64,000 nt of DNA from a virus, in the IMG/VR virus record IMGVR_UViG_3300021197_001365, positions 1-64,000 of that record; one strand, written 5' to 3'. The notes below the pieces were generated by a model. That model was not told where the DNA came from, ran no database searches, and saw only the letters and a list, made by a program, of their open reading frames with translations. Shown one piece after another: positions 1-52,384 of this stretch. Position numbers and translations under genes: made by a program. Within the stretch, counting starts at the first letter, position 1, and each line of letters opens with the position of its first letter.

Positions 1-66
1 CATCATAGTCAAGAATCCTGACAAAAGTCCCTGAGTTAAATTTTACCTCTATAGTTTAAAAATTAA

Positions 67-95
67 ATTATACCGAGGTGGAGTTCGAATGTCAA
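67..95 (-). promoter_or_regulatory. Sigma70 promoter TTGACA-N17-TATAAT, pointing to a gene left of the window
   Basis: Exact consensus hexamers on the minus strand (90-95, 67-72), just after the TBDR terminator. Confidence 0.85.
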
Positions 96-116
96 GATGT
101 TTTTTTAGTTAGGAGT

Positions 117-147
117 AATAAAAAAGGGGCCGTAGCCGACCCCTTGT
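117..147 (-). terminator. Intrinsic terminator of the TBDR gene
   Basis: Minus strand AAGGGGTCGGCTACGGCCCCTTTTTT hairpin plus U-run directly after the stop codon. Confidence 0.8.
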
Positions 148-148
148 A

Positions 149-2920
149 TTAGAACGTATAGTTAAATCCTATGCTGTAGTTTTTGCCATACATATCGTAC
201 TGGCTTAATTGAGATTCGTTTCCCCAGTAGTAATATTCTGGTCTATTGTTTAAGTTCACTGCCTCTGCTTTAACAGTGAAGTTATCATTAACAGCATATT
301 TGACTGTTAGGTCCCATTGTATAAAGTCACCAACAAATCTACTATTGTTAACACTTACTTCCCCAATGTCGCCATCTTCATCTGCTAACCAATCTAAGTA
401 ATCACTTCTATAGTTACCAGCAACTCTTATATCCCATGCACCTTTGTCGTAGCCAAAGTTAACGTTAGCAGCTTTATCGGCTAACTTACGGAACGAAGTT
501 GTAAATGATACATCATCTTCAAAGTTAAATGCGCTTTCACTGTCTGTTAGTGTAAAGTTAGTTGCTACATACAATCCATTTTCCCATCCGTATTGTGCAT
601 TAAGTTCTATGCCATTAATTCTGCTGTCATCTGCATTGATCCATGTTTCAACACCATCATTAAACGATATGCCGTTGAACACACCATTGCGTTGGTATGT
701 TGGATAAATTGCATTAGCAATACTCTTATGGAAGTAACCCACTGCAAAGTAAGTCATACCTTCTCCATAATATTCTAAACTTAAATCAAAGTTATCTGCT
801 TCGTATGGCTTTAGGTTTGGATTACCAATGCTACCACTTGTATCACCTGATGTGTCTACATCATAATCTGTGATAGGAGCAGTTTCTTTGAATCCTGGTC
901 TGCTTAAACCTCTCCACAATGCACCACGTACTTGCCAATTGTCTGTGAGCCAATGCTTAACAGTTACACTAGGAGCAACAAAGCCATAGTCATTCTCTGC
1001 ATAAGTTTTATTGCCGTCTTGGTCGTATGCTGTACTTTCAAAGTCAGTATGCTCATAACGTACACCTGCAATAATAGTAGTTTTTTCTAATTCAACTGTG
1101 CGTTGTGCATAAACACTATTAATTGTTTCATCAGTTATAAAATCTCTGCTGATGTCATCGCTGAAATCTACTGTCATTTGGTCAGTTAGACTTCTAAGGT
1201 TATATGTTTCCTGTGCAGTCATATGATTACCAAACACTTGATTTGGAAAGAACCAACCAGGCGCAGTTGTAAATTCAAAGTCTGCCATAGTCATATCGTC
1301 CCATTCATACGCAATAATATAATCATCTACATCCTTAGTTCTGCCTCTGTACTTGTAACCTACCTTCCATAACCCGTTGTCTGCGTTTATTTGAAATGTA
1401 GTTTCGCTATCTTTACTGACATTACTCCACATTTCAAAAGCATCAAACTCTAAGTTCTCTGAATTACGCAAAGTATCATCTACAGGTGTAACAAATGGAT
1501 GAACAGGATTGCTCCAATCAAATACTGCACCACTGTCTTTGTCGTAGTTTCTAAATGTAATGTCAGCATTATCGCTGTCATCTTCTTCAGCCCAACTATA
1601 ACTTAGTTGCGAGTCTACTGCCCAATCAGCCATATCAAATTCTGCACCAAGGTTCATAGCACCTATAGTTCTTGTTTCATATCGCTGTCTTGTTTCTGCA
1701 TCGTGTCTAACTCTGCTGGACAACATACTGTTTTCAAAAGGCTCAGCCATTTTGATTTTGCCATATTCATTTTTAAAACGAATCTCATCTTCTTCATACT
1801 GGTTGTACAAAATATTAGCAAATACCACAGCACCACTTTCTAACAATGTGTTGATGTCATAACTAAATCCGTAACGCTCTCTGGTTAAGTCATAATAGCG
1901 TAACTCAAAGTCATCATTCATGTATCCATCTTCCCAGCCAAATCCAGTTTCATTATTATAACTTTCAATGTTCTTTGAACTGTAAGTTAGTCCCATGATG
2001 TGAGCAGTGTTGTCTGTAATACTGTCGCCATATGTTACGCTAAAGTTAGGAGCTTGTTCATAGTCTGTATACTCCGCAAACTTACTGCTAACTTTTACTT
2101 TTAACAACATTTCATCTAAGTCAGTTGGCTTCTTGGTATTAAATTCAATTCTGCCGCCAATGCTGTCTGAATCCATTTCAGGTGTTAAAGTTTTTGAAAC
2201 TGTAATACTGTCCATAAGTTCAGTGGGTATGCCGTCCATTATTACTGAACGTCCGTTTTCAGGTGCAACCATACTAGCACCGTTTACTGCTACACTGTTT
2301 AAGTCTGAACTTAATCCTCTAATTGTAACATAACGTCCTTCGCCCTGATCATTTTCTACACTTATACCACTTAATCTTCTAATGGCGTCTGCGGCTGTTG
2401 TATCAGGAAAGTTGCCTAATGCATCTGAGTCTACAACACTGATAATACCATCAGCCATCATCTGTTTGTCTACTGCTCTCATAAGTGTTGCTCTGGTTCC
2501 TACAACAAGCACTTCTTCAACAGTAGGGTCGTACGTTGGAGTGTTATCTCTGTATTGTTGAAACTCTTCAACAACTTCTTCTATTGGTGCATTTACTAGA
2601 AGTACTCTTGCATTTACAATGCCCATTTCAGTTAATGCATCATATCTGTGGTGCCCATCAATAATATAATATTGCTGATCGATAACCAAAGGCCTATAAG
2701 TATTTTCTTGTGCCTTGATTAATCTCTTCTCTTGCTTCTTTAAGTTTTGAACTCGTTGAGTCTGCACAGGAATTAAACTGCTTACAGGTACTTCTGTTGC
2801 AGTAAATTCAAATTGTGATTGTTCTAGGATTTCTTGATTTAGTTGGGGGAGTTGATTTCTGTCATATTGTGCAAATACAATAGTAGGCACCAACAGCATT
2901 GCTAAAAATAAATAACGCAT
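149..2920 (-). CDS. TonB-dependent outer-membrane receptor with N-terminal ParB/Srx-like domain
   Basis: Likely start MRYLFLAM at 2920 (GGAGAG SD); signal peptide; PLVID..IIDGHHRY motif; TonB box VEEVLVVGTR; plug motifs (NFPDTTAADAIRRLSG, GEGRYVTIRGL, DSIGGRI); barrel ending in C-terminal Phe (GFNYTF). Confidence 0.93.
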   Translation of the reverse strand: MRYLFLAMLLVPTIVFAQYDRNQLPQLNQEILEQSQFEFTATEVPVSSLIPVQTQRVQNLKKQEKRLIKAQENTYRPLVIDQQYYIIDGHHRYDALTEMGIVNARVLLVNAPIEEVVEEFQQYRDNTPTYDPTVEEVLVVGTRATLMRAVDKQMMADGIISVVDSDALGNFPDTTAADAIRRLSGISVENDQGEGRYVTIRGLSSDLNSVAVNGASMVAPENGRSVIMDGIPTELMDSITVSKTLTPEMDSDSIGGRIEFNTKKPTDLDEMLLKVKVSSKFAEYTDYEQAPNFSVTYGDSITDNTAHIMGLTYSSKNIESYNNETGFGWEDGYMNDDFELRYYDLTRERYGFSYDINTLLESGAVVFANILYNQYEEDEIRFKNEYGKIKMAEPFENSMLSSRVRHDAETRQRYETRTIGAMNLGAEFDMADWAVDSQLSYSWAEEDDSDNADITFRNYDKDSGAVFDWSNPVHPFVTPVDDTLRNSENLEFDAFEMWSNVSKDSETTFQINADNGLWKVGYKYRGRTKDVDDYIIAYEWDDMTMADFEFTTAPGWFFPNQVFGNHMTAQETYNLRSLTDQMTVDFSDDISRDFITDETINSVYAQRTVELEKTTIIAGVRYEHTDFESTAYDQDGNKTYAENDYGFVAPSVTVKHWLTDNWQVRGALWRGLSRPGFKETAPITDYDVDTSGDTSGSIGNPNLKPYEADNFDLSLEYYGEGMTYFAVGYFHKSIANAIYPTYQRNGVFNGISFNDGVETWINADDSRINGIELNAQYGWENGLYVATNFTLTDSESAFNFEDDVSFTTSFRKLADKAANVNFGYDKGAWDIRVAGNYRSDYLDWLADEDGDIGEVSVNNSRFVGDFIQWDLTVKYAVNDNFTVKAEAVNLNNRPEYYYWGNESQLSQYDMYGKNYSIGFNYTF

Positions 2921-2963
2921 AATGCTCTCCTTTTGCTTTGGGTAAATTTTTACCACAGAAGAT

Positions 2964-2997
2964 ATTATACCACAAGATTGTTACAATTTTATGAAAA
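2964..2997 (-). promoter_or_regulatory. PhoB-type promoter: Pho box plus extended -10
   Basis: Minus strand TTTTCATAAAATTGTAAC (14/18 to CTGTCATAAAACTGTCAC), exactly 10 bp upstream of TATAAT (preceded by TGG); no TTGACA. Confidence 0.78.
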
Positions 2998-3037
2998 CAC
3001 CGTTTAACGTTTTTGCTTTTTTTCCAAAGTGGTACGT

Positions 3038-3090
3038 GTGGGGGAGCGCGGCCGCGCTAAATGAGAATGAGTCTCATTACCGCCCCCCCA
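3038..3090. repeat. Palindrome cluster at the left edge of the pre-early block (possible terminal-repeat boundary)
   Basis: Perfect 14-bp palindrome AGCGCGGCCGCGCT (3045-3058), Fur-like palindrome (3060-3078), flanking G-run and C-run; composition shifts here. Confidence 0.55.
3060..3078. promoter_or_regulatory. Fur-box-like inverted repeat 1
   Basis: AATGAGAATGAGTCTCATT; core TGAGAAT-G-AGTCTCA is 11/14 to the 7-1-7 Fur motif TGATAAT-N-ATTATCA. Confidence 0.5.
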
Positions 3091-3148
3091 TACAGCAAAG
3101 ACCCCTGGCGGGCAAGCATTTTTTGTGACATATTACCACTTTTATTTC

Positions 3149-3177
3149 TTGCATTATGGCCCAGGATGGGGTACAAT
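3149..3177 (+). promoter_or_regulatory. Pre-early promoter TTGCAT-N17-TACAAT
   Basis: Near-consensus hexamers upstream of the pre-early operon. Confidence 0.65.
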
Positions 3178-3206
3178 AGGCACTTAATAAATCGAGGCGC
3201 TACGCT

Positions 3207-3311
3207 ATGACAACACTGCAAATTTTTATCATGCTCGGACTGGCATCACCCGCTCTAATTGCTGTGGCGTGGGGCATTTGGGATCAACGTCCAAGCGCGC
3301 GAAAATGGTAA
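3207..3311 (+). CDS. 34-aa single-TM peptide
   Basis: MTTLQIFIMLGLASPALIAVAWGIWDQRPSARKW with GAGG SD; below the ORF-track cutoff. Confidence 0.55.
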   Translation: MTTLQIFIMLGLASPALIAVAWGIWDQRPSARKW

Positions 3312-3409
3312 TATTTCACAAAAATATATCTGGACTTCTGCGCGTCAATATGAGACAATTCATTTCAAGGTGGAGCGATGGGCGCTCGACCTCAACAAAA
3401 GGAGGCTCT

Positions 3410-3721
3410 ATGCCTTATTCAGAAAAGCAGGTTGTGGCACTGCAAAACGCCGCTACTCAATTCGGTACTCTCAACAGTGAGATTGCCGGTAAACTCGCGG
3501 CTGACCTTGGTCAGTCAAAGCGGAGCGTGATCGCTAAGATCGGCTCGCTCGGTTTGCCTTATAAGGCGGCCAAGCGTTCGGTGAAAGGCACTCGTGCCAC
3601 TAGCAAAGCGGAATATGTTGCCGCTATTGCCAAGGCGCTCGACGCTGATGCGTCGGAGCTGGCTGGCTTGGAAAAAGCCACCGCTCTCGCTCTCTCTGGC
3701 TTGCTGTCATCAATTCGATGA
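3410..3721 (+). CDS. T5 A2-like pre-early DNA-binding protein
   Basis: AAGGAGG SD; IAGKLAADLGQSKRSVIAK and SKAEYVAAIAKAL..LAGLEKA resemble T5 A2 as I recall it. Confidence 0.75.
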   Translation: MPYSEKQVVALQNAATQFGTLNSEIAGKLAADLGQSKRSVIAKIGSLGLPYKAAKRSVKGTRATSKAEYVAAIAKALDADASELAGLEKATALALSGLLSSIR

Positions 3722-3915
3722 TAGCGGTTATCGGCTGGATAGGGGCGCTCTGCATGGCAGGCGCTCCATTCATTATCGACACCGACGCGGGCAAGGTCGC
3801 CGCGATTGCTGGATTGGTATTATTAACGGTACAAGCGCTGGACATTCGGGCAATGAATCTGGTACTATTAAATCTGGCTGGAATTATAGGATATAGCTAT
3901 GCACTACTTTTTTGA
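3718..3915 (+). CDS. Small hydrophobic membrane protein
   Basis: 65 aa, nearly all hydrophobic, ATGA-coupled to the A2-like gene. Confidence 0.65.
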   Translation: MIAVIGWIGALCMAGAPFIIDTDAGKVAAIAGLVLLTVQALDIRAMNLVLLNLAGIIGYSYALLF

Positions 3916-4372
3916 CCTCGACCATACGGTCATCGATTCGTCACACCGACAGATCACACGACCGGACGGCTCGCTTGACCTCGCCGCGTGGATTCACAAC
4001 AACACTCGCGCTAACATCATGGCAGACACTCTGCTACCGCTCGCCGCACAATGGCGCAAGGTAGATCGCAAGGGCGCGACTATCGTGATCTGTACCGCTC
4101 GCGTTATGGGTGAGCATGACTACGAATATCTGCGCGCAAATGGGTTGCGTTGGGACGCTTGCCTCTCGCGTCGATTGGGTGACAGCTCACCCGATGCGAA
4201 ATTAAAAGAGCGTATGATCCGCAACTATGCCGCTACATTTCCGGTATCATGGGCGCGGTTCTGCTCAACAGCCGTCTTTTTTGACGACAACAAAAATGTG
4301 CTTGAAATGCTTGATCGCATTGGCATAAAAGCGTATGATTCTATTTTACTCAACGAAAGGTTATCAGCATGA
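3899..4372 (+). CDS. dmp: HAD-family deoxynucleoside 5'-monophosphatase (T5 Dmp-like)
   Basis: FDLDHTVIDSSHR (DxD motif I), ICTAR (II), K (III), FFDD (IV); IMADTLLPL and DYEYLRANGLR segments resemble T5 Dmp. Confidence 0.8.
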   Translation: MHYFFDLDHTVIDSSHRQITRPDGSLDLAAWIHNNTRANIMADTLLPLAAQWRKVDRKGATIVICTARVMGEHDYEYLRANGLRWDACLSRRLGDSSPDAKLKERMIRNYAATFPVSWARFCSTAVFFDDNKNVLEMLDRIGIKAYDSILLNERLSA

Positions 4373-4869
4373 TTTTACGAAGTTACGACAAAGCACCAGA
4401 GATCACCCCGATTTCTGGCATGGCATGGCACTACGTTTGGGAATTGCTCGAATTTGGTGTTTTCAAAAATGGCTACGCTTGCCACGCATACGCCAACGGC
4501 GGGCATGGCGGTATTGAGCGCGTAACATGGTGTTTGCGAGATGTCGAGGACGCATTTGGCTACAATCGCGGAGAGCTTCACGCTCGCGTTTGGCGAATGA
4601 AGCTGGGCGAGAATGAGGAAGTTTTAGCCGCCGAGCAATTTGTCCACGCTCGCAACAAAGATGACAAGGCCATGCTGTATGACAAGCGCTGGCTGGACGT
4701 TGGCGGCAAAAGCGAATTTTACTTTTGCTCTGCCAAAACTGCGATGGCGCGGTTCACTAATTCCTATCGCAAATCCAATTTGCAGATTGGCGAGGGTGTC
4801 GTCGCTCACAAGCGAGCCAAGGGCATACACGGTTGCCCACTGCCCCGCACTTATGCGGTGACGGCGTGA
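4369..4869 (+). CDS. Pre-early protein, possible GIY-YIG/T5orf172-like nuclease
   Basis: FKNGY...ERV...AAEQFVH...GKSEFY pattern resembles KxG..R..E..H..EWF of T5orf172/MUG113. Confidence 0.45.
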   Translation: MILRSYDKAPEITPISGMAWHYVWELLEFGVFKNGYACHAYANGGHGGIERVTWCLRDVEDAFGYNRGELHARVWRMKLGENEEVLAAEQFVHARNKDDKAMLYDKRWLDVGGKSEFYFCSAKTAMARFTNSYRKSNLQIGEGVVAHKRAKGIHGCPLPRTYAVTA

Positions 4870-4958
4870 GATATCTTGCGCTGGCCTATTTGGTTTATTC
4901 TGTCACCACAGATCTAGCGATCTGGGGTGGCGCGCTTTACTACTTTTTCGGAGGATGA
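4866..4958 (+). CDS. 30-aa hydrophobic peptide
   Basis: GTGA overlap with the upstream stop; MRYLALAYLVYSVTTDLAIWGGALYYFFGG. Confidence 0.5.
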   Translation: MRYLALAYLVYSVTTDLAIWGGALYYFFGG

Positions 4959-4962
4959 AAAA

Positions 4963-5085
4963 ATGAGCCAACTGGAAAAAATCCAATTCACAATGGAAAT
5001 TATCCGCACGGTTTGCCCCGTCGTCATGGTGATACTGCAAATCGCCATCATCACCGGCCTTGTAATTATGGGCGATATGGGCTAG
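4963..5085 (+). CDS. 40-aa single-TM peptide
   Basis: GGAGG SD; MSQLEKIQFTMEIIRTVCPVVMVILQIAIITGLVIMGDMG. Confidence 0.6.
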   Translation: MSQLEKIQFTMEIIRTVCPVVMVILQIAIITGLVIMGDMG

Positions 5086-5090
5086 GGCTA

Positions 5091-5109
5091 GATGAGAACC
5101 ATTCTCATT
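5091..5109. promoter_or_regulatory. Fur-box-like inverted repeat 2
   Basis: GATGAGAACCATTCTCATT; core TGAGAAC-C-ATTCTCA is 11/14 to the 7-1-7 Fur motif. Confidence 0.55.
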
Positions 5110-5148
5110 TGGGCCAGGAAATAAAATAATCTTTTTTGCAAATAGGGC

Positions 5149-5178
5149 TTGACACCCCTGCATTTTTTGCGCTAAAAT
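5149..5178 (+). promoter_or_regulatory. Promoter TTGACA-N18-TAAAAT
   Basis: Upstream of the acidic mini-gene. Confidence 0.7.
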
Positions 5179-5221
5179 GTTTACATCAACTAGGGGATTG
5201 GCCCCATTTAAGGATAGAAAA

Positions 5222-5389
5222 ATGTCACACTACGTAAACGAAGCCAACGCCGAAGCCTGCTACGAAGAAGCCTGCGAAGCGGGTTACGCTTTTTTCGCCG
5301 AGGCGGACTGGGACGGCCAAGCGTTCGAGGCTTGGGTAAACTGGAAAACGGATGAGCTTCTTTCTGAGCTTCCCGACGGCTACCGTTAA
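5222..5389 (+). CDS. 55-aa highly acidic pre-early protein
   Basis: TAAGGA SD; 13 D/E versus 2 K/R; has its own promoter. Confidence 0.7.
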   Translation: MSHYVNEANAEACYEEACEAGYAFFAEADWDGQAFEAWVNWKTDELLSELPDGYR

Positions 5390-5405
5390 TGTTCCACATG
5401 GAACA
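5390..5405. promoter_or_regulatory. parS-like palindrome
   Basis: TGTTCCACATGGAACA, 15/16 to the chromosomal parS TGTTCCACGTGGAACA. Confidence 0.7.
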
Positions 5406-5412
5406 CCTCGCC

Positions 5413-5425
5413 CAACTCCTTGATT
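5413..5425 (-). promoter_or_regulatory. IHF consensus site
   Basis: Minus strand AATCAAGGAGTTG matches WATCAANNNNTTR exactly. Confidence 0.5.
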
Positions 5426-5452
5426 TATCAGGGATTTCGGCGCGGGGGCGCC

Positions 5453-5609
5453 AGTAGTAGTGCGACGACGATTTTCTTTGGTGGTGCCTGCGCCATTGTA
5501 CCAGTTCGAAAGCGATTTGTCAAGTCTTTTTTGCGGGTGTGCCCCAAATTGTTTTAAGTTGCCCTGGTCTTAAAAATTGCGCCGATTATAGTAGTAGTAC
5601 GACGACGAT
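5453..5609. repeat. Two copies of a 20-bp direct repeat
   Basis: AGTAGTAGTGCGACGACGAT (5453-5472) and AGTAGTAGTACGACGACGAT (5590-5609), 19/20 identical. Confidence 0.9.
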
Positions 5610-5715
5610 GTCAAGTACTTTTTGCACATTTGCCCAAAATAATTCGACGCGCTAGTCTCTGCCAGACCCCGTGCCCAACCCTGGTATTATATCATAACCC
5701 AGGCGGGGTTGTCAA
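5495..5715 (-). promoter_or_regulatory. Three tandem leftward sigma70 promoters with no downstream ORF
   Basis: TTGACA-17-TACAAT (5495-5523), TTGACA-18-TATAAT (5585-5614), TTGACA-18-TATAAT (5686-5715). Confidence 0.75.
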
Positions 5716-5882
5716 GTACTATTTAGGGTTTTCCTGCATATTGACAACTTACGCGCACTTATGGTACTATAATTCGACAAAATTTGCTACAATTAGACAA
5801 AATAAACCTTGACACGGGAAGGTCGTGTGCGGCCCCCCGGAGTTCGTTTGCGTTATCCTGGCGACCAATTCGCAAAAAAGTG

Positions 5883-5911
5883 TTGACAACTTGCCCAAAC
5901 TTTAGTATAAT
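5883..5911 (+). promoter_or_regulatory. Early promoter TTGACA-N17-TATAAT
   Basis: Exact consensus; a further rightward candidate TTGACA-18-TACTAT lies at 5741-5770. Confidence 0.85.
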
Positions 5912-5937
5912 AGTTACCATAAATCGGAGGACTATGC

Positions 5938-6126
5938 ATGAACGATATTCAATTCGAAGCCTTTAGCTTGTACGCGGGTATGCGTATGGAAGGTATGCCT
6001 AAGCTGGATGCCTTTCTATATACTATACAGTGTATGCTTCCAGAGGACGACTACCCCAACGGATACGACGATGGTGCAGTAGAGCTGTACTCTTGGTTGC
6101 GTCAGAAGGTGAAGCTGGATGGCTAA
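5938..6126 (+). CDS. Hypothetical small acidic protein
   Basis: GGAGG SD, first gene after the promoter. Confidence 0.7.
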   Translation: MNDIQFEAFSLYAGMRMEGMPKLDAFLYTIQCMLPEDDYPNGYDDGAVELYSWLRQKVKLDG

Positions 6127-6553
6127 AGTTAAGTACATAACAAAAGCTAAACGCACATGGACTAAGCACAAACGACAGCTTGTGCGTAATGCGTTTAAGC
6201 ACGCTTTTTGGGAGATGAATCTGTACAAACTTGATGTACATATTGATATTCGTCTAGTGGGAACACCAAATGCCCCAGGAGCCTGCACAGATGCTGAAAC
6301 CAAGTACGTTGTGCATATTGATGGAACACAAGACCCAGAAGACATCGTTGAGACTCTGTTTCACGAACTGCAACACGTTGTTCAATACGCTCTTGGCTAT
6401 TTACAAGACGCAGAAAGTAAAGTATACTGGTTAGGTAACTGGTACACCGGCGATTATCAAGACACCGCTACCTCTGACTACTGGGATGCACCTTGGGAAG
6501 TAGAAGCTCGCCAGGTTGCATGGAATATGTCAGAAAATTACTACCAAAACTAA
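6119..6553 (+). CDS. Zn metallopeptidase-like protein
   Basis: TLFHELQHVVQ (HExxH) and PWEVEAR motif. Confidence 0.8.
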   Translation: MAKVKYITKAKRTWTKHKRQLVRNAFKHAFWEMNLYKLDVHIDIRLVGTPNAPGACTDAETKYVVHIDGTQDPEDIVETLFHELQHVVQYALGYLQDAESKVYWLGNWYTGDYQDTATSDYWDAPWEVEARQVAWNMSENYYQN

Positions 6554-6635
6554 AAAAATTGTTGACAAAATGCTAAAACTACTCTATAATATATTTTCAA
6601 AAGTTGGAAAACAAACATTTTCGGGAGAAAAATTT

Positions 6636-6953
6636 ATGTCTGAAGCTACCAAAGTTGTAAACTACACTGACGAAATGGTTGAGACCATCGTTGCTACCTA
6701 CGAAGCTGCCCCTGAGCGCGCTACTGTTGACGCCCTTGCACAAAAATTTGGCAAGACTTCTCGTTCTATCATCGCTAAGCTGTCTACGCTTGGTATCTAT
6801 CAAGCTCCGGCTCGTGTTACCAAAACAGGTGTTCCTGTTGTCAAGAAGGAGACTTTGGTTGCTGAGATCAACAGCAAGCTCGGTGTTGAACTGCCTTCTC
6901 TGGTCAAGGCTAACAAGCAAGACCTCGAAGCACTTTTTGCGGCTCTCAGCTGA
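6636..6953 (+). CDS. A2-like DNA-binding paralog
   Basis: NYTDEM..LAQKFGKTSRSIIAKLSTLGIY..KKETLV..LPSLVKANK; promoter at 6562-6590. Confidence 0.7.
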   Translation: MSEATKVVNYTDEMVETIVATYEAAPERATVDALAQKFGKTSRSIIAKLSTLGIYQAPARVTKTGVPVVKKETLVAEINSKLGVELPSLVKANKQDLEALFAALS

Positions 6954-7036
6954 GAGTCGTACCCCAGGAGGTAGCCCATCTGCCTCCTTTCTTTTGTAAG
7001 TGCATTTGCTAAGTGTGCTTTCAAAAGGAGACTACC

Positions 7037-7300
7037 ATGAAAAATAATTTTGTTGCTAAAAACGCACATAAGTTCAATCGTGCAAACGTCATGGTTGATC
7101 GTAAAAAAGAAGCCAAAAAGTCTGGGTACAAGCAAGACCAGGCCTGGCTAGGTTTGGGTAATTTTGAACGCGAAATAATTTATGAATATTATGAGCGTTC
7201 TGACCATGCTGGGTTACACTCGTATCTCATGTGTGTTCTGAATTTAACGAGCAGTCAAATCTACGAAATAAAGCAAAGCCTGAGAGACGGAGTATCCTAA
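7037..7300 (+). CDS. Hypothetical protein with basic N-terminus
   Basis: AAGGAG SD before MKNNFVAKNAHKFNRA. Confidence 0.65.
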   Translation: MKNNFVAKNAHKFNRANVMVDRKKEAKKSGYKQDQAWLGLGNFEREIIYEYYERSDHAGLHSYLMCVLNLTSSQIYEIKQSLRDGVS

Positions 7301-7488
7301 TGGCTAAATTAAAAGAGAATGCTGATTCAGTATGTTTTCGAATACAGTCGTACATGATTGAAGCAAGTAACAACCCCGCTCCGATTCTGCATATGAATGC
7401 TGACGGTTTAGTGATTGAGTACAATGATGAAGAAACTGGACACAAGATTTTTGAGAAAATATCTGACGTTCAAAAAAATAATTCTTGA
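7300..7488 (+). CDS. Hypothetical protein
   Basis: TAATG-coupled start MAKLKENAD, GGAG SD. Confidence 0.6.
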   Translation: MAKLKENADSVCFRIQSYMIEASNNPAPILHMNADGLVIEYNDEETGHKIFEKISDVQKNNS

Positions 7489-7520
7489 CTTTTTGTGGTC
7501 ACTTCAAGTATAATATCTTT

Positions 7521-8059
7521 TGAAAAGTCGGAAATAGACCAAGTTTTGAGGAAGTCATGGACGCCAAGGTGTGCTACCCACCTGCGATAAGACAGTAAAG
7601 ATCCCGGTAAAAGTTAACTCGGCCTATCCGGAGCCTCAGCCCATTTGTTCCACCTTCGTTGACCCCGCCGTGTACAGGTTGAAAGGCATCGTCAGTGGAA
7701 CAAGTGCTAATGCGGAATGGCAAAGCACGTTAAAAAGTACCATTTCAGTGTGCGTGGCGCACTAGTTAGTCCACACGCTCTACTCCGAAGCGTCCAAATG
7801 TCGGCAGTACGTTTAGAAGGCGTATAGCTTCTATCCAGTTAAGGTTTGGTGCGATTTCTACCACTGGGATATCAAAAAGAAAAATGCGGTAAGAGTGTAA
7901 ACGCGATACATTCTTAGGTACGTGAGGAAGGCGGTGCGTATCACTATAACTATAGAAGTCTTACTGACAACAGTCTATTATTGCAAAGAGGCGTCGAAAA
8001 CCTTGACTGTGGAAGGAAGGCGGAGGAATCCCTGCATAGAAATATGTGGGGATTTTTTT
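7521..8059 (+). ncRNA. Large structured non-coding RNA candidate (~500 nt), class unknown
   Basis: Own promoter (7485-7514) and terminator (8027-8059); no SD-led ORF; nested 5'/3' pairing and many internal helices. Confidence 0.75.
8027..8059 (+). terminator. Intrinsic terminator
   Basis: AATCCCTGCATA-GAAA-TATGTGGGGATT plus T-run. Confidence 0.85.
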
Positions 8060-8165
8060 ATGCGTGTTCAAAAATATTTCTTGACATTCTTGTTGAAATT
8101 TGAGATAATACATGAGTCTGAAATCTAAGGAGAAAATTCTATGCTGACAATTGGAGGTACTAAGT

Positions 8166-49900: not shown

Positions 49901-52384
49901 TCCTTGGGCAGTAAATAGTTTCCATTTTCCATATCTTCGTGCCTGCCCTTCTGAAGTAACTCCAAAAGCAACAGCATTTTCTTTTATAATTCTTCCAGAA
50001 GATACAATAGCGTCTCTATCTTCTACAATAAGAGGCACTTTTTCATACCCAATTTCTGGATTGTTCCAAGTGACTACAACTTGATTTGTTCTTGTTTTTT
50101 GACCGGTGCTCTCATACACAAACTGTCCATCGACAACATTTGCCTGAGAAAAACTGTAAACAGGGTCGCCAGGAGCATCCATTATTGTAGTTAACTGTCC
50201 ATCCATCCAATAAACTAAAGAAGTAAAAACTGTTGCCATATCTTTTACAACTTTGTAAACATCAGTAGCTTTTGAAAGGTATAAGTTAGCTGTAAAACGA
50301 GGTTCAAAGCCCCCTTTTCCATCGGGTACTAGCTCATCACAATATTTTGATACTCGATATAGAGAATATATATCTATATCTGATGTTTTTACCCAGTCTC
50401 CTGCCCCGAATCGATCATTTGTAATAATATCTAAAAAGATCCATACAGGGTTATTTGTATAATAAAGTTCTTCAGTTAAATTACCGTTCCAAAATTCCGG
50501 ATAGGTAGGCACACTATAACTTGCACTAGTTCCTGCATCATTTGTTTTAGATTCTGTAATTCCTGAGTGCTCTCGAGGTTTGTATCCTTGAGGAACTTTT
50601 ACTTTCATTCCTCTCATTTCATAGCTTCTTTTTGGAACACTAGAGTACTCACGAGAGTCTAAAAATAGACCAGCATGTGCCGTATAAGGGTAAGAAAACT
50701 TATCTTTATTTATCGCAACTAAGTTTGAAATTTGGGAAGTTGTATCGCCTTGATCTGAATCATAATCAGGAAAGTGATCCCCCCCTCCTTCCATTATGCC
50801 TCGACCTTTATGACGAGTCAAGCGAAAAATTTGTATTTTAAAGTCTACAAAAGGTTTAATAAAAGATAAATCAATATAGTGCTCGAAAGAAACTGCACTT
50901 TTATCTTTTCCTCGATGCTCGATAGTAGGTTGTCCAGCACCTTGGGGCGTTTTAAAAACAGCTTTATAGTTTTCAAATGAAGTGGCTCCAGGAGCTTTTC
51001 TTGCAATTCGAAATAAATAAACTGCATGATTCTGAATTTCATCTCCATTCTGCTTTTTAATTGCTTGAAACTGTCCGTATTGTATAGAAATACGAACTTC
51101 ATCAAGAGTTGGAACTACACTATCTAGACTTCCGAACATGCTGGCATTAATTTCAATAGGAGTAACTGCACCTTCCGTATCTATCGTTTGGCCTTCTGGG
51201 TAGTCTGAGGTAGAAAATCCATAAAGGTTGGAACCGTCCGGTTTAGTACGTAACTTATCATTTGGATTAGCCGTATCCCAAGAGGTATAATTTATCTGTT
51301 TTAATAAATTTGTAGGTAAAGCACCGGTATTTGCAGTATATGAAGCACCCCCTCCCACGCCATTTAATTCTGTGATTGCATCTTGATATGCATAACCGCC
51401 TCGAAACTGCGCTACAAAATTATTTGATTGTGGCGGATTATCGACCTCAACATCGTCAGCACTGCCTGGCTTAGACCCAGACAGAGTAAAGCAGTAAGTG
51501 CCGGCGCCTGCAGTAGGTCCATGTTCAATAGTAATTTTATTAGTAACAACATTAAAACTACTAATTTTTATAGCTTCTAATACTTGTACTTTATAGGGGC
51601 GTGCAGCTAAGTTATTATTCCAAGGATTATACGCATTTAAATCGGTGGGACTAAACTTAAGAGTAGTGCCAGAAATCCAGTGACCGTCTCCTACATACAT
51701 TATATCATTTGTAACAGGGTGAGCAAGTACAATAAAACGATCTTCAATTAAAGGCGGAGAGCTTATTTCAAACGCAAAAGTACCCGATAATCCACTATTT
51801 CCTGAAGGGGAAACAGAAATTGAAGTTACTGAACCTCCTGTGAGTGCGGCTGTTGCAGTAACGTTTTCAACAACGGTACTTACACCTGCTGTAACTTTAA
51901 GAACTTTCACACTTGGAGCAGTTGTATATCCAGTGCCTCCATTTGTTATGCTTGGAGTTTCTAAACTTCCCACTATAACTTGATTACCTGCAGTTGCCGT
52001 TTGATTAAATGTTCGATAAACTTCACTAAAATTGCTTGCGCCTGTAATTTCTAATGTTTTAGTTGAATAGTCATAAGTTGCTGAAGACTTTGTAATACCT
52101 TCATTTCTTATAAGTAAAAAATTATCATTTTTTGGAATACCCGCATTCTCAGAAAAAGAAAGGGGTAAAGCAGGAGTTATACTATCACCCTCAGTATCGC
52201 TACTACCAGCAAAATTTATTTTAGCATTTATAGGAGTCCAAGGAGCATCAGGATCTAAATCTTGTACACGTTGACCATTAAGAAATATGGAAGAATCTCC
52301 GTAAACAAGACCCTCAACGGGGCCTTCACAAATTGCATCGTGAATAAAAATATGTTGTTGATTACTTTTTATGGGCGTAGCCAT
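43907..52384 (-). CDS. Tail tip/central fibre protein (lambda gpJ-like), 2825 aa
   Basis: ICEGPVEGL, YPYTA, NNPVWIFLD, YCDELVPDGKGGFEPRF, FGVTSEGQARRYGKW, C-terminal RVILGKL. Confidence 0.92.
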   Translation of the reverse strand: MATPIKSNQQHIFIHDAICEGPVEGLVYGDSSIFLNGQRVQDLDPDAPWTPINAKINFAGSSDTEGDSITPALPLSFSENAGIPKNDNFLLIRNEGITKSSATYDYSTKTLEITGASNFSEVYRTFNQTATAGNQVIVGSLETPSITNGGTGYTTAPSVKVLKVTAGVSTVVENVTATAALTGGSVTSISVSPSGNSGLSGTFAFEISSPPLIEDRFIVLAHPVTNDIMYVGDGHWISGTTLKFSPTDLNAYNPWNNNLAARPYKVQVLEAIKISSFNVVTNKITIEHGPTAGAGTYCFTLSGSKPGSADDVEVDNPPQSNNFVAQFRGGYAYQDAITELNGVGGGASYTANTGALPTNLLKQINYTSWDTANPNDKLRTKPDGSNLYGFSTSDYPEGQTIDTEGAVTPIEINASMFGSLDSVVPTLDEVRISIQYGQFQAIKKQNGDEIQNHAVYLFRIARKAPGATSFENYKAVFKTPQGAGQPTIEHRGKDKSAVSFEHYIDLSFIKPFVDFKIQIFRLTRHKGRGIMEGGGDHFPDYDSDQGDTTSQISNLVAINKDKFSYPYTAHAGLFLDSREYSSVPKRSYEMRGMKVKVPQGYKPREHSGITESKTNDAGTSASYSVPTYPEFWNGNLTEELYYTNNPVWIFLDIITNDRFGAGDWVKTSDIDIYSLYRVSKYCDELVPDGKGGFEPRFTANLYLSKATDVYKVVKDMATVFTSLVYWMDGQLTTIMDAPGDPVYSFSQANVVDGQFVYESTGQKTRTNQVVVTWNNPEIGYEKVPLIVEDRDAIVSSGRIIKENAVAFGVTSEGQARRYGKWKLFTAQGQTEIVSFKTSFEGLFLKPGDIIEVQDAARYGKSLSGRTSSATTTSGNHVVTLDREVTLDTTTFDYKLNILITEPAAYYLGEDSITVDHGSGSSSDNQILTRGERILKAWVRDTSSGSRTLGVIDTKEKAANAYTEETGGQLIELNWKKDSFVETKTVSSFTVTAGKTQITVDGTFDTLPDPSSIWMLEETATDGGLPSKSSPDLYKILGIAQDAKNVYSISAVEHLNNKYAFIDDPDAILDIPDDVYAPEPQIVPAPTNVFILQNSNASRPNEEIIIEWEYPEFDASGNPISRFLDSFEILHTVPDRENTFNLGKNARRFSLRDVPDGTYMFRIRAISVSQHKSAWTSSRYVVEDPFDDSVNRNKGIQTEGLASSIPFVTNETEATGNFRGVFDSSIGGFVSGSNDDGYKVKDIVITGGAYYYLPTEGTPTDISTWKDYRGGILKFREDTNPVLAPSRSRREEAVTLDANTIFDVNILRSKTWPGVITTNSRYAEVVLDHSTASDSSASTPAFRLLHAKYDADLAIFYWYDIKHFMDSSNTGLSKYWTNTSATIKFVDGSNKVTRDSGSYSFTDLNNLNKIIFAKQLQSGTTAFTSGTKTISSLATSTVADLQIGSVIEISSTTGKNTGRFHVASIPSTTSITVEEAIVTENPNVTIHLVVTAARVAYVKNATELFLDRKVTLPPGALDNNGDPEALQLWVQNYAPDFRKDVILGRLANTTTNGTGNFRFQSFLTIDPSLQGDRAILLDLNESFLQYNPDEELILAPPKLELIATAIGFDDPLFKVDYNNTEPSGSPMPLRAEDTSFQNPTAGLFTFKADIWNGTNTLPFDDADAIQIRVQVIEKEDQGDGDKTVTETITLAKVGDVAAGEGSRSVLIELSDYDVLYDQNGTNPAFTPSSSGSGKIRLTGTASPGFADPIFRFKVGGAVVRADAYQNGDWFDPGGDIANVNWPVPTTLYANNAFTWTNKNGGSKNVVVEVAEKPDNWTAAAPSSGTNTNEPPTDQIFAKDVDNILGLRAGHNGITVNFINDSHIVPCDGDGDVINNSDGTVPLSGAQIKVFKGATKLQYIASGVPTGSQFTIPSSGITTTDTALSATANGITVGAISTTTPSGEVAHAIIADHKFKGKIGDPFENTEAITYPLTIGMSAGETAVSMSVTQTFSLVKDGTKGTTVGQVFLYKRSVNAPNQPSSSFPKVKVNLATGLIDPTGTDDNSNAVYAGGSVSADEGWYSTANAAFAASGASGTIWIVAATANGTGNFDYIVNTEWTTTVQFTGDDGLSTATVELFQANNTENTAPNLPGDLTYTFNPPGLSTPSGSLGLRGWSETMPGPTVSTQYVWRTSAAAVSTGATATIDGVDSGVNADGQDWSTPVLIARYVEASLFSVSPEHQLFVKQSNGTIEPSAIKITAKKTNVTGTVNWSGATFYTAETGGSTTTTGDVVYIRASDLAANASSVTVTGTVSYQGATFTDIESIEVVEDGAAGADAITISLSNDNVILTADKDGGVSDFSGSQCTVTVREGATSLTPVTSSAGNGQYTVLASTSGITADTTYGSTDISGGSVSFGVATAIGSSTDTATRTFSVTGKTEDGTNFTASKVQGFSKAKQGLPGTSTTGEPGQRTVSGVVYYQTAVTDSNVPDVPALTGFSANFTDGTFTYASGWGAVPPTATPGSQTSYYYFHLTISESGNYTSNAWDDVDKTASPSVGSDCIKGIGFTGLVTFSGDNLISGSTTYNPIKYINGTISGEASVTQINGAAIKTGTIQADRFISTPLLAIGSLTPGSNGTLSVTDLEGSNGLNLGTFAKLSSLSLGSASLTGSLPESQGGTGATSYSAAFSSAFNAAGGVFEADIFDGDPSNSSTRLVGAFKNTINASGIALEADIFNGDPSGTAGTNSFTTQFKAQLSASGLFLDQTSENNYLNTEITAGSIQLGNVLNANAAGQVQGAFSASTSITSGKITLSTESGSSGGTIDLDSTNKQIIIKDGSGNSRVILGKLS

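Follow-up and report, generated by a model that had tools for sequence, protein, structure and literature searches.

The DNA analysed here, called the window in the following, covers the first 64,000 bases of a virus record in IMG/VR that has a length of 77.7 kb and is 80% complete according to CheckV. Its DNA polymerase A shows 43% identity to those of T5-like phages (Demerecviridae) of Vibrio, Aeromonas, and enterobacteria, and the phage also encodes a tape-measure protein and an SbcC-like nuclease. From this T5-like gene content, together with the lack of integrases, we infer a lytic character. The features of the region under study are collected in Table 1. The original prediction had spoken of a pre-early block, a designation that homology supports in part: an A2-like DNA-binding protein, assigned to a family that is defined by T5 A2 itself, is followed by a homologue of the T5 pre-early protein dmp, but A1 could not be recovered. 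When T5 A1 and the remaining T5 pre-early proteins were used as tblastn queries, dmp alone matched, and no A1 homologue was found with the T5 A1 query in the clade of the window phage.

Table 1. Coordinates of genes, sites, and predicted promoters in the parS region of the window.
Feature	Position	Strand	Remark
TonB-dependent receptor with signal peptide, ParB/Srx-like DGHHR domain, plug, and barrel	149-2920	-	
A2-like DNA-binding protein (family of T5 pre-early A2)	3269..3721	+	phrog_1725, E 8.8e-7; weak BLASTP match
Homologue of T5 pre-early dmp (deoxynucleoside-5'-monophosphatase)	3899..4372	+	tblastn 31% identity, E 2e-12; HAD/PNK phosphatase families
Fur-box-like palindrome AAATGAGAACCATTCTCATTT	5090..5110	.	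second copy at 3059-3079
Promoter and 70-aa ORF	5149..5389	+	promoter 5149-5178, ORF 5177-5389
Orphan host-type parS TGTTCCACATGGAACA, central-mismatch variant of TGTTCCACGTGGAACA	5390..5405	.	15/16 match
Exact IHF consensus WATCAANNNNTTR, overlapping a small inverted repeat	5413..5425	-	7 bp after parS
Conserved GC palindrome GGCGC-N4-GCGCC	5439..5452	.	preceded by parS at 26-67 nt in most relatives, at more in a few
Three tandem consensus sigma-70 promoters, toward parS	5523->5495, 5614->5585, 5715->5686	-	11-12/12 consensus positions
Rightward consensus promoters for the next gene block	5741-5770, 5883-5911	+	

The TAA stop of the 70-aa ORF ends at 5389 and parS starts at the very next base, which bears out the prediction of a 15/16 site opening one base after the last pre-early stop codon. 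As a 16-bp palindrome it fits the chromosomal-type consensus TGTTNCACGTGNAACA, from which the sites of the related contigs described below deviate at no more than one position. It is the sole match at ≤3 mismatches in the window, a threshold at which shuffled windows gave a mean of 0.22 matches and 21 of 100 shuffles at least one, and also the sole match at ≤2 mismatches in the whole 77.7-kb record. By analytic estimate, about 7e-4 sites with ≤1 mismatch are expected by chance in 64 kb. Half-sites (GTTYCAC) are not enriched, with 15, 16, and 26 observed versus 17, 21, and 22 expected.

To the right of parS, about 550 nt are non-coding and contain invariant blocks and repeats. The predicted leftward and rightward promoters stand back to back in this region, and GGCGC, the half of the conserved GC palindrome, recurs as the start region of those firing leftward. 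A 20-mer, AGTAGTAGTrCGACGACGAT, is repeated (5453-5472 and 5590-5609) as spacer or downstream box of the leftward promoters, and the block TGTCAAGTCTTTTTTG of the promoter region (5495..5715) is invariant in relatives. Judging by these predicted promoters, parS marks the meeting point of rightward pre-early-like and strong leftward transcription. No ORF is served by the leftward promoters, which run antisense to the pre-early-like genes. The IHF consensus that had been noted next to parS is an exact match, but it is near chance level, as the pattern occurs six times in the window against about two estimated for uniform bases, and it is poorly conserved, being kept only in the subclade of the window and in one further relative (L009), while a TTGAC element is found elsewhere. 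The Fur-like boxes fared better: in three relatives (L155, L156, and L033) a predicted Fur-like palindrome lies immediately 5' of parS. In two of these, L155 and L156, the box is followed directly by parS without the 70-aa ORF, and in the window this ORF and its promoter look like a cassette inserted between the predicted box and parS. One palindrome of this kind (AATGAG AATGAG T CTCATT type) is found close to where the pre-early-like block begins and another, close to its end, before the promoter of the 70-aa ORF; the copy in L155 lies at 6875-6895.

Since 4800-6200 had no counterpart among cultured phages by blastn, relatives were taken from IMG/VR via neighbouring proteins. They were fetched with the two ORFs upstream of parS, with the dmp-like protein, or with the invariant non-coding block TGTCAAGTCTTTTTTG, the last search being independent of parS, and most relatives were thus found without using parS itself. 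At least six seawater metagenome studies, dated 2014 to 2025, contain the sequence of the window phage, and one contig of 2024 is identical to the window across 4891-5695. A missing or degenerate site in relatives had been suggested as evidence against the prediction, but this was not borne out: of 21 distinct related marine contigs with coverage of the position, about 19 have a parS-consensus site at the equivalent place. Most sites are perfect (TGTTCCACGTGGAACA, 12 contigs); TGTTCCACGTGAAACA was seen in two contigs, the central CA/TG variant likewise in two (the window and G003), and GGTTCCACGTGGAACA, TGTTCCACGTGGAACG, and GGTTTCACGTGAAACA in one each. Among 16 distinct sequences, mean pairwise identity amounts to 93% in parS versus 34% and 31% in the 24-nt flanks, and the variable positions of the site are only 1 and 16, the N positions of the textbook consensus, and the central CpG. 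Some changes are one-sided, at position 12 (L187 and L199) and at position 1 or 16 (L007 and L009). At least seven unrelated upstream contexts adjoin parS, several different ORFs having a stop codon that touches the site, and in L187 and L212 the upstream ORF terminates at a TGA within it. Genomes G000-G003 have exactly one parS each. In two relatives (G004/L006 and L251) the non-coding region is kept, with its GC palindrome and promoter blocks, and parS is absent, which indicates that the site is dispensable in some settings. The end of an ORF occupies its place there (6180-6290 in L006). What the window holds is a genuine host-type parS that is under selection.

A palindrome placed right after stop codons could also act as a nucleic acid hairpin, either as an RNA 3'-end or stability element or as a terminator between converging transcripts, rather than as a protein site. 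The site can fold into a 6-bp stem capped by a 4-nt loop (-6.9 kcal/mol, z = -3.4), the z value of the 81-nt region is about -3 for either strand, and contigs from RNA libraries run across parS, those from two metatranscriptome libraries of one study covering 5323-5435 and 5432-5593. These RNA-library contigs cover parts of 4870-5870; they show neither strand, ends, nor true expression, their gaps carry no meaning, and they could be DNA carry-over. Moreover, a U-tract does not follow downstream, a hairpin would not need the exact parS sequence, and the one-sided changes named above break pairs of the stem. As these changes affect a single half-site, a dimeric DNA-binding protein fits better than a hairpin, which we consider very improbable.

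The hexamer CACGTG, the core of the perfect site, is 4- to 14-fold under-represented in G000, G001, and G002, with three, one, and two copies, respectively, versus 11-14 expected, and the sole CACGTG in the 94.6 kb of G001 is the core of its parS. Both ACGT and CATG are also under-represented in these genomes, each about 2-fold. This scarcity of CACGTG, ACGT, and CATG suggests restriction avoidance, and parS is retained against the genome-wide avoidance of CACGTG. The CACATG form found in the window may be a compromise with this pressure.

A self-contained parA-parB-parS cassette, in which the element supplies ParB and ParA beside its site, is not present in G000-G004. The Pfam family ParB_N detected no homologue in these genomes, and neither did protein searches with ParB and ParA of the candidate host; one of the genomes is 97% and another 100% complete, and tyrosine integrases and serine recombinases were not found in them either. 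The claim that no DNA-binding ParB or ParA is encoded in the window could thereby be extended to the whole record and to the 97%- and 100%-complete relatives. The sole ParB-like sequence, the DGHHR domain of the TonB-dependent receptor, was considered as a partition ParB and rejected, as the protein lies outside the cytoplasm, where it has no access to cytoplasmic DNA, and is without the DNA-binding part of ParB. What is found, from sequence alone, is the constellation of an orphan centromere of the SGI1 type, namely a site for a foreign ParB without a ParB of its own. The nearest precedent is indeed the hijack of the IncC parABS system by SGI1 (PMC10954446): this island carries parS matching the ParB of the IncC plasmid and has no ParB itself, as the phage does for that of its likely host, and it exploits the parABS of the helper plasmid for stable inheritance and helper expulsion, whereas the phage case would concern the chromosomal system of the host and a T5-like phage.

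In its receptor part, the phage TonB-dependent protein shares 60-68% identity with SAR92/Porticoccaceae receptors, which makes this family the likely host. The assignment derives from a single gene that was itself probably acquired from a host. All five SAR92/Porticoccaceae genomes tested encode one ParB each and have one or two parS, typically about 620 bp apart, and parS lies about 11.5 kb from parB where both share a contig (four of the five genomes). At the locus of G008, both parS are inside recF, between dnaN and gyrB. Family-wide, 136 of 151 genomes have one or two sites at ≤1 mismatch, a reversed-pattern control being almost empty, and a typical arrangement is a parS pair about 627 bp apart in recF. 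A combination of one perfect site with TGTTCCACATGGAACA, identical to the window variant, is very common in the family; GGTTCCACGTGGAACA and T/A forms are likewise among its sites, so that TGTTCCACATGGAACA and GGTTCCACGTGGAACA, the two commonest phage variants, are both native to the host family. In G008, the central-mismatch variant is the only form of parS, which argues that host ParB can use it. The flanks of the phage sites show no similarity to those of the host recF sites, and a recent capture of recF DNA is ruled out by this lack of shared sequence.

Among cultured phages, Vibrio phage phi 3 (KP280063, Demerecviridae, host V. cholerae) carries two perfect sites, TGTTTCACGTGGAACA at 821-836 and TGTTTCACGTGAAACA at 2934-2949. 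According to its annotation, both lie within the left terminal repeat (1-7769, first-step-transfer) in an operon of the order A2 - site - A1 - ORF2 - site - dmp, and the right terminal repeat carries both again. Read along the coding strand, the first site directly abuts the TAG stop of ORF2 and is then followed by a hairpin, a layout as in the window. JSF10 (KY883654), which is 95% identical to phi 3, has kept both sites (88000-88015 and 90148-90163) with the same central C-to-T change in each. The cultured V. cholerae phage JSF12 has the same parS feature. A sub-threshold ParB_N match of phi 3 and JSF10 (12.8-13.1 bits) was rejected as a ParB; it corresponds to a 77-aa frame, in phi 3 at 50530-50655 on the minus strand (12.8 bits, profile positions 53-94), which is too short for a DNA-binding ParB. 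In fifteen other cultured phage genomes with a total of about 1.9 Mb, no parS with ≤1 mismatch was detected. These comprised T5, the Vibrio phages VspSw_1, Cilsick, PVo5, KIT04, VCPH, D239, VPG01, D51, and 249E41-1, and Aeromonas phage TS3, Rhizobium phages RHph_N37 and RHEph15, and Caulobacter phages S2L and CcrBL10. Most cultured Vibrio T5-like phages are hence devoid of parS, as are the A1-bearing Caulobacter and Rhizobium phages tested, although these hosts probably have ParABS. Given its absence from most tested phages, parS is not a general requirement. Its occurrence is sporadic, but in those T5-like phages that have it the site is located in pre-early DNA, and phi 3 and JSF10 represent an independent cultured T5-like lineage in which it recurs there.

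The gene order of phi 3 also bears on the question of whether a phage protein, such as the A2-like DNA-binding protein, might bind the palindrome, its likeness to parS being coincidental or an imitation. In the window an A2-family gene lies 1.7 kb upstream of parS, and one of the phi 3 sites is placed between A2 and A1. Still, T5 and most A2-bearing phages are without such a site, and a coincidental match would be expected about once in 4^14 or more rarely, considering the 16/16 identity and a variation that is limited to degenerate positions and to variants used by the host. Binding by a phage protein is therefore improbable.

As to whether the site arose by chance or is neutral host DNA left over from a capture, some 15/16 matches have to be expected over about 250,000 windows, and shuffling the window also yielded matches at the laxer threshold given above. 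The data already contradict chance, however, as the site is conserved across diverged relatives and recurs in phi 3 and JSF10. Furthermore, perfect TGTTCCACGTGGAACA is present in at least 120 IMG/VR contigs compared to three for the reversed control palindrome, being at least 40-fold commoner, and the flanks show no resemblance to host recF. We consider a chance match or neutral relic scarcely credible.

With the identity, conservation, and orphan status of the site established, together with its match to native host sites and its recurrence in a cultured lineage, host ParB would be by far the most economical reader of parS, and we hold this to be highly probable. Most likely, host ParB would load on early phage DNA, the phage borrowing the ParB clamp of its host. 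Once this stretch of the phage genome reaches the cytoplasm, ParB dimers of the host would bind parS, take up CTP, close into sliding clamps, and spread a few kb to both sides, leftward over the A2/dmp pre-early-like genes and rightward over the opposing strong promoters. The resulting partition complex might then pass the phage DNA to host ParA and the pole-positioning machinery, and it might also damp or insulate the converging transcription that meets at parS. In our preferred reading, to which we assign a probability of roughly 0.6, the site would be a working copy of the host centromere without phage partition genes, and the ParB complex would act in cis on early phage DNA, with a benefit for the phage. 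Such a role in cis is favoured because the position is fixed beside the earliest genes in two lineages, and because ParB1 of V. cholerae spreads over about 16 kb and silences some genes; it can also block the replication of parS1 plasmids, and parAB1 mutants are viable (PMC4010829). Given that such mutants are viable, any benefit would have to come from an action on the phage DNA itself. The phenotypes of V. cholerae parAB1 mutants are mild. In vitro, ParB clamps slide off free DNA ends, and an accumulation of ParB on a linear entering genome is for this reason uncertain. V. cholerae uses MukBEF and not SMC, which makes SMC loading unlikely as a shared purpose.

A benefit in trans would arise if replicating phage genomes acted as decoys that soak up host ParB and disturb segregation, SMC loading, or the cell cycle. 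In its favour, the site is a single orphan without other parts of its own, and with just one or two parS on the host chromosome, few phage copies would be enough to compete. On the other hand, a decoy could lie anywhere in the genome, whereas the site keeps its position next to the earliest genes in two separate lineages. In Vibrio and Pseudomonas, cells that lose chromosomal ParB are only mildly affected, and the effect builds up over generations and not within one lytic cycle, so that the phage would gain little from a decoy, and we judge this role to be unlikely.

Apart from positioning or gene control, the ParB complex might serve as a stop, anchor, or ratchet in the two-step DNA entry of T5-like phages. 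In the iss region of T5-like phages, Davison described eight oriC-like DnaA boxes and proposed that host DnaA stops injection there (bioRxiv 10.1101/866236), and parS would be the counterpart of these boxes. Both are conserved untranslated regions with many repeats and palindromes after the pre-early genes (A2-family and dmp in the window) and with predicted sites for host proteins of the origin region. Paired DnaA boxes in inverted repeats, as in T5 iss, are not found in the window, where the region holds a ParB site and only one consensus DnaA box (5620), and where DnaA boxes are not enriched (six in 64 kb). An injection stop is a proposal for the DnaA boxes of T5 iss as well as for parS. 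In support of entry control, parS follows the A2- and dmp-like genes and opens the conserved repeat-rich region, and both phi 3 sites belong to the annotated first-step-transfer repeat. The unitig depth of run X1 is 120-137 over 3200-5695, 95 over 5666-6025, and 49-58 over 6033-8062. Depth thus falls about 2:1 at 5.7-6.0 kb (about 125 versus about 55), immediately to the right of parS and the promoters. The step is clear only in X1, a DNA run, and weak in another run; it could represent the point at which a collapsed terminal repeat ends on its inner side. The phi 3 sites, however, are placed between pre-early genes inside the operon and not in iss, which would be expected at the end of the repeat, 4-7 kb away. 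In addition, A1 was not detected in the clade of the window phage, its contigs are permuted relative to one another, and two relatives do without parS. Taken as a specific function, entry control thus seems quite unlikely. More broadly and only tentatively, it is conceivable that several virulent lineages copy the host centromere to load ParB and that T5-like phages do so on the first-entering DNA, where the complex would control the pre-early stage by holding or positioning the DNA, by gene shut-off, or by entry timing, as a counterpart of the T5 DnaA boxes for hosts with ParABS.

Compared to the chromosomal parS/ParB (Spo0J)-CTP complexes of bacteria, the phage site is the same 16-bp palindrome, and its variants are identical to recF sites of the candidate host family; it differs in residing on a virulent-type genome without parA and parB, in its single copy per roughly 100 kb, and in its place beside pre-early-like genes instead of a replication origin. 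Centromere-like sites are also carried by phages such as P1 (parABS), N15 (sopABC), and the extrachromosomal mycobacteriophages (PMC7157519). These plasmid prophages possess their own ParA and ParB together with element-specific sites for inheritance, whereas the clade of the window has neither protein, and lysogeny genes were not found in it. Full-text literature searches on parS/ParB and phages turned up no virulent phage that lacks ParB and is described as carrying a natural host-type parS. To our knowledge, virulent phages have not been described as exploiting ParB-parS, a core system of chromosome segregation, as a host factor. Should host ParB indeed load on these phage genomes, such centromere mimicry would be a new kind of host takeover, giving access to the pre-early stage of infection by T5-like phages, which is poorly understood, and a natural counterpart to the laboratory labelling of phage DNA by ParB/parS. 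Phages phi 3, JSF10, and JSF12 represent a tractable system here, as the genetics of ParB1, ParA1, and HubP already exist in V. cholerae.

Orphan parS may be widespread in phages. Among the 120 IMG/VR loci listed with a perfect site (L026-L145), a ParB-like gene was found in the fetched flank at one, and recF or gyrB at none. In other marine phage groups, parS follows closely after the major head protein gene or after its downstream neighbour. Four loci (L081, L112, L145, and L026) show two parS 8 bp apart, which in L081 are located just upstream of the large terminase gene.
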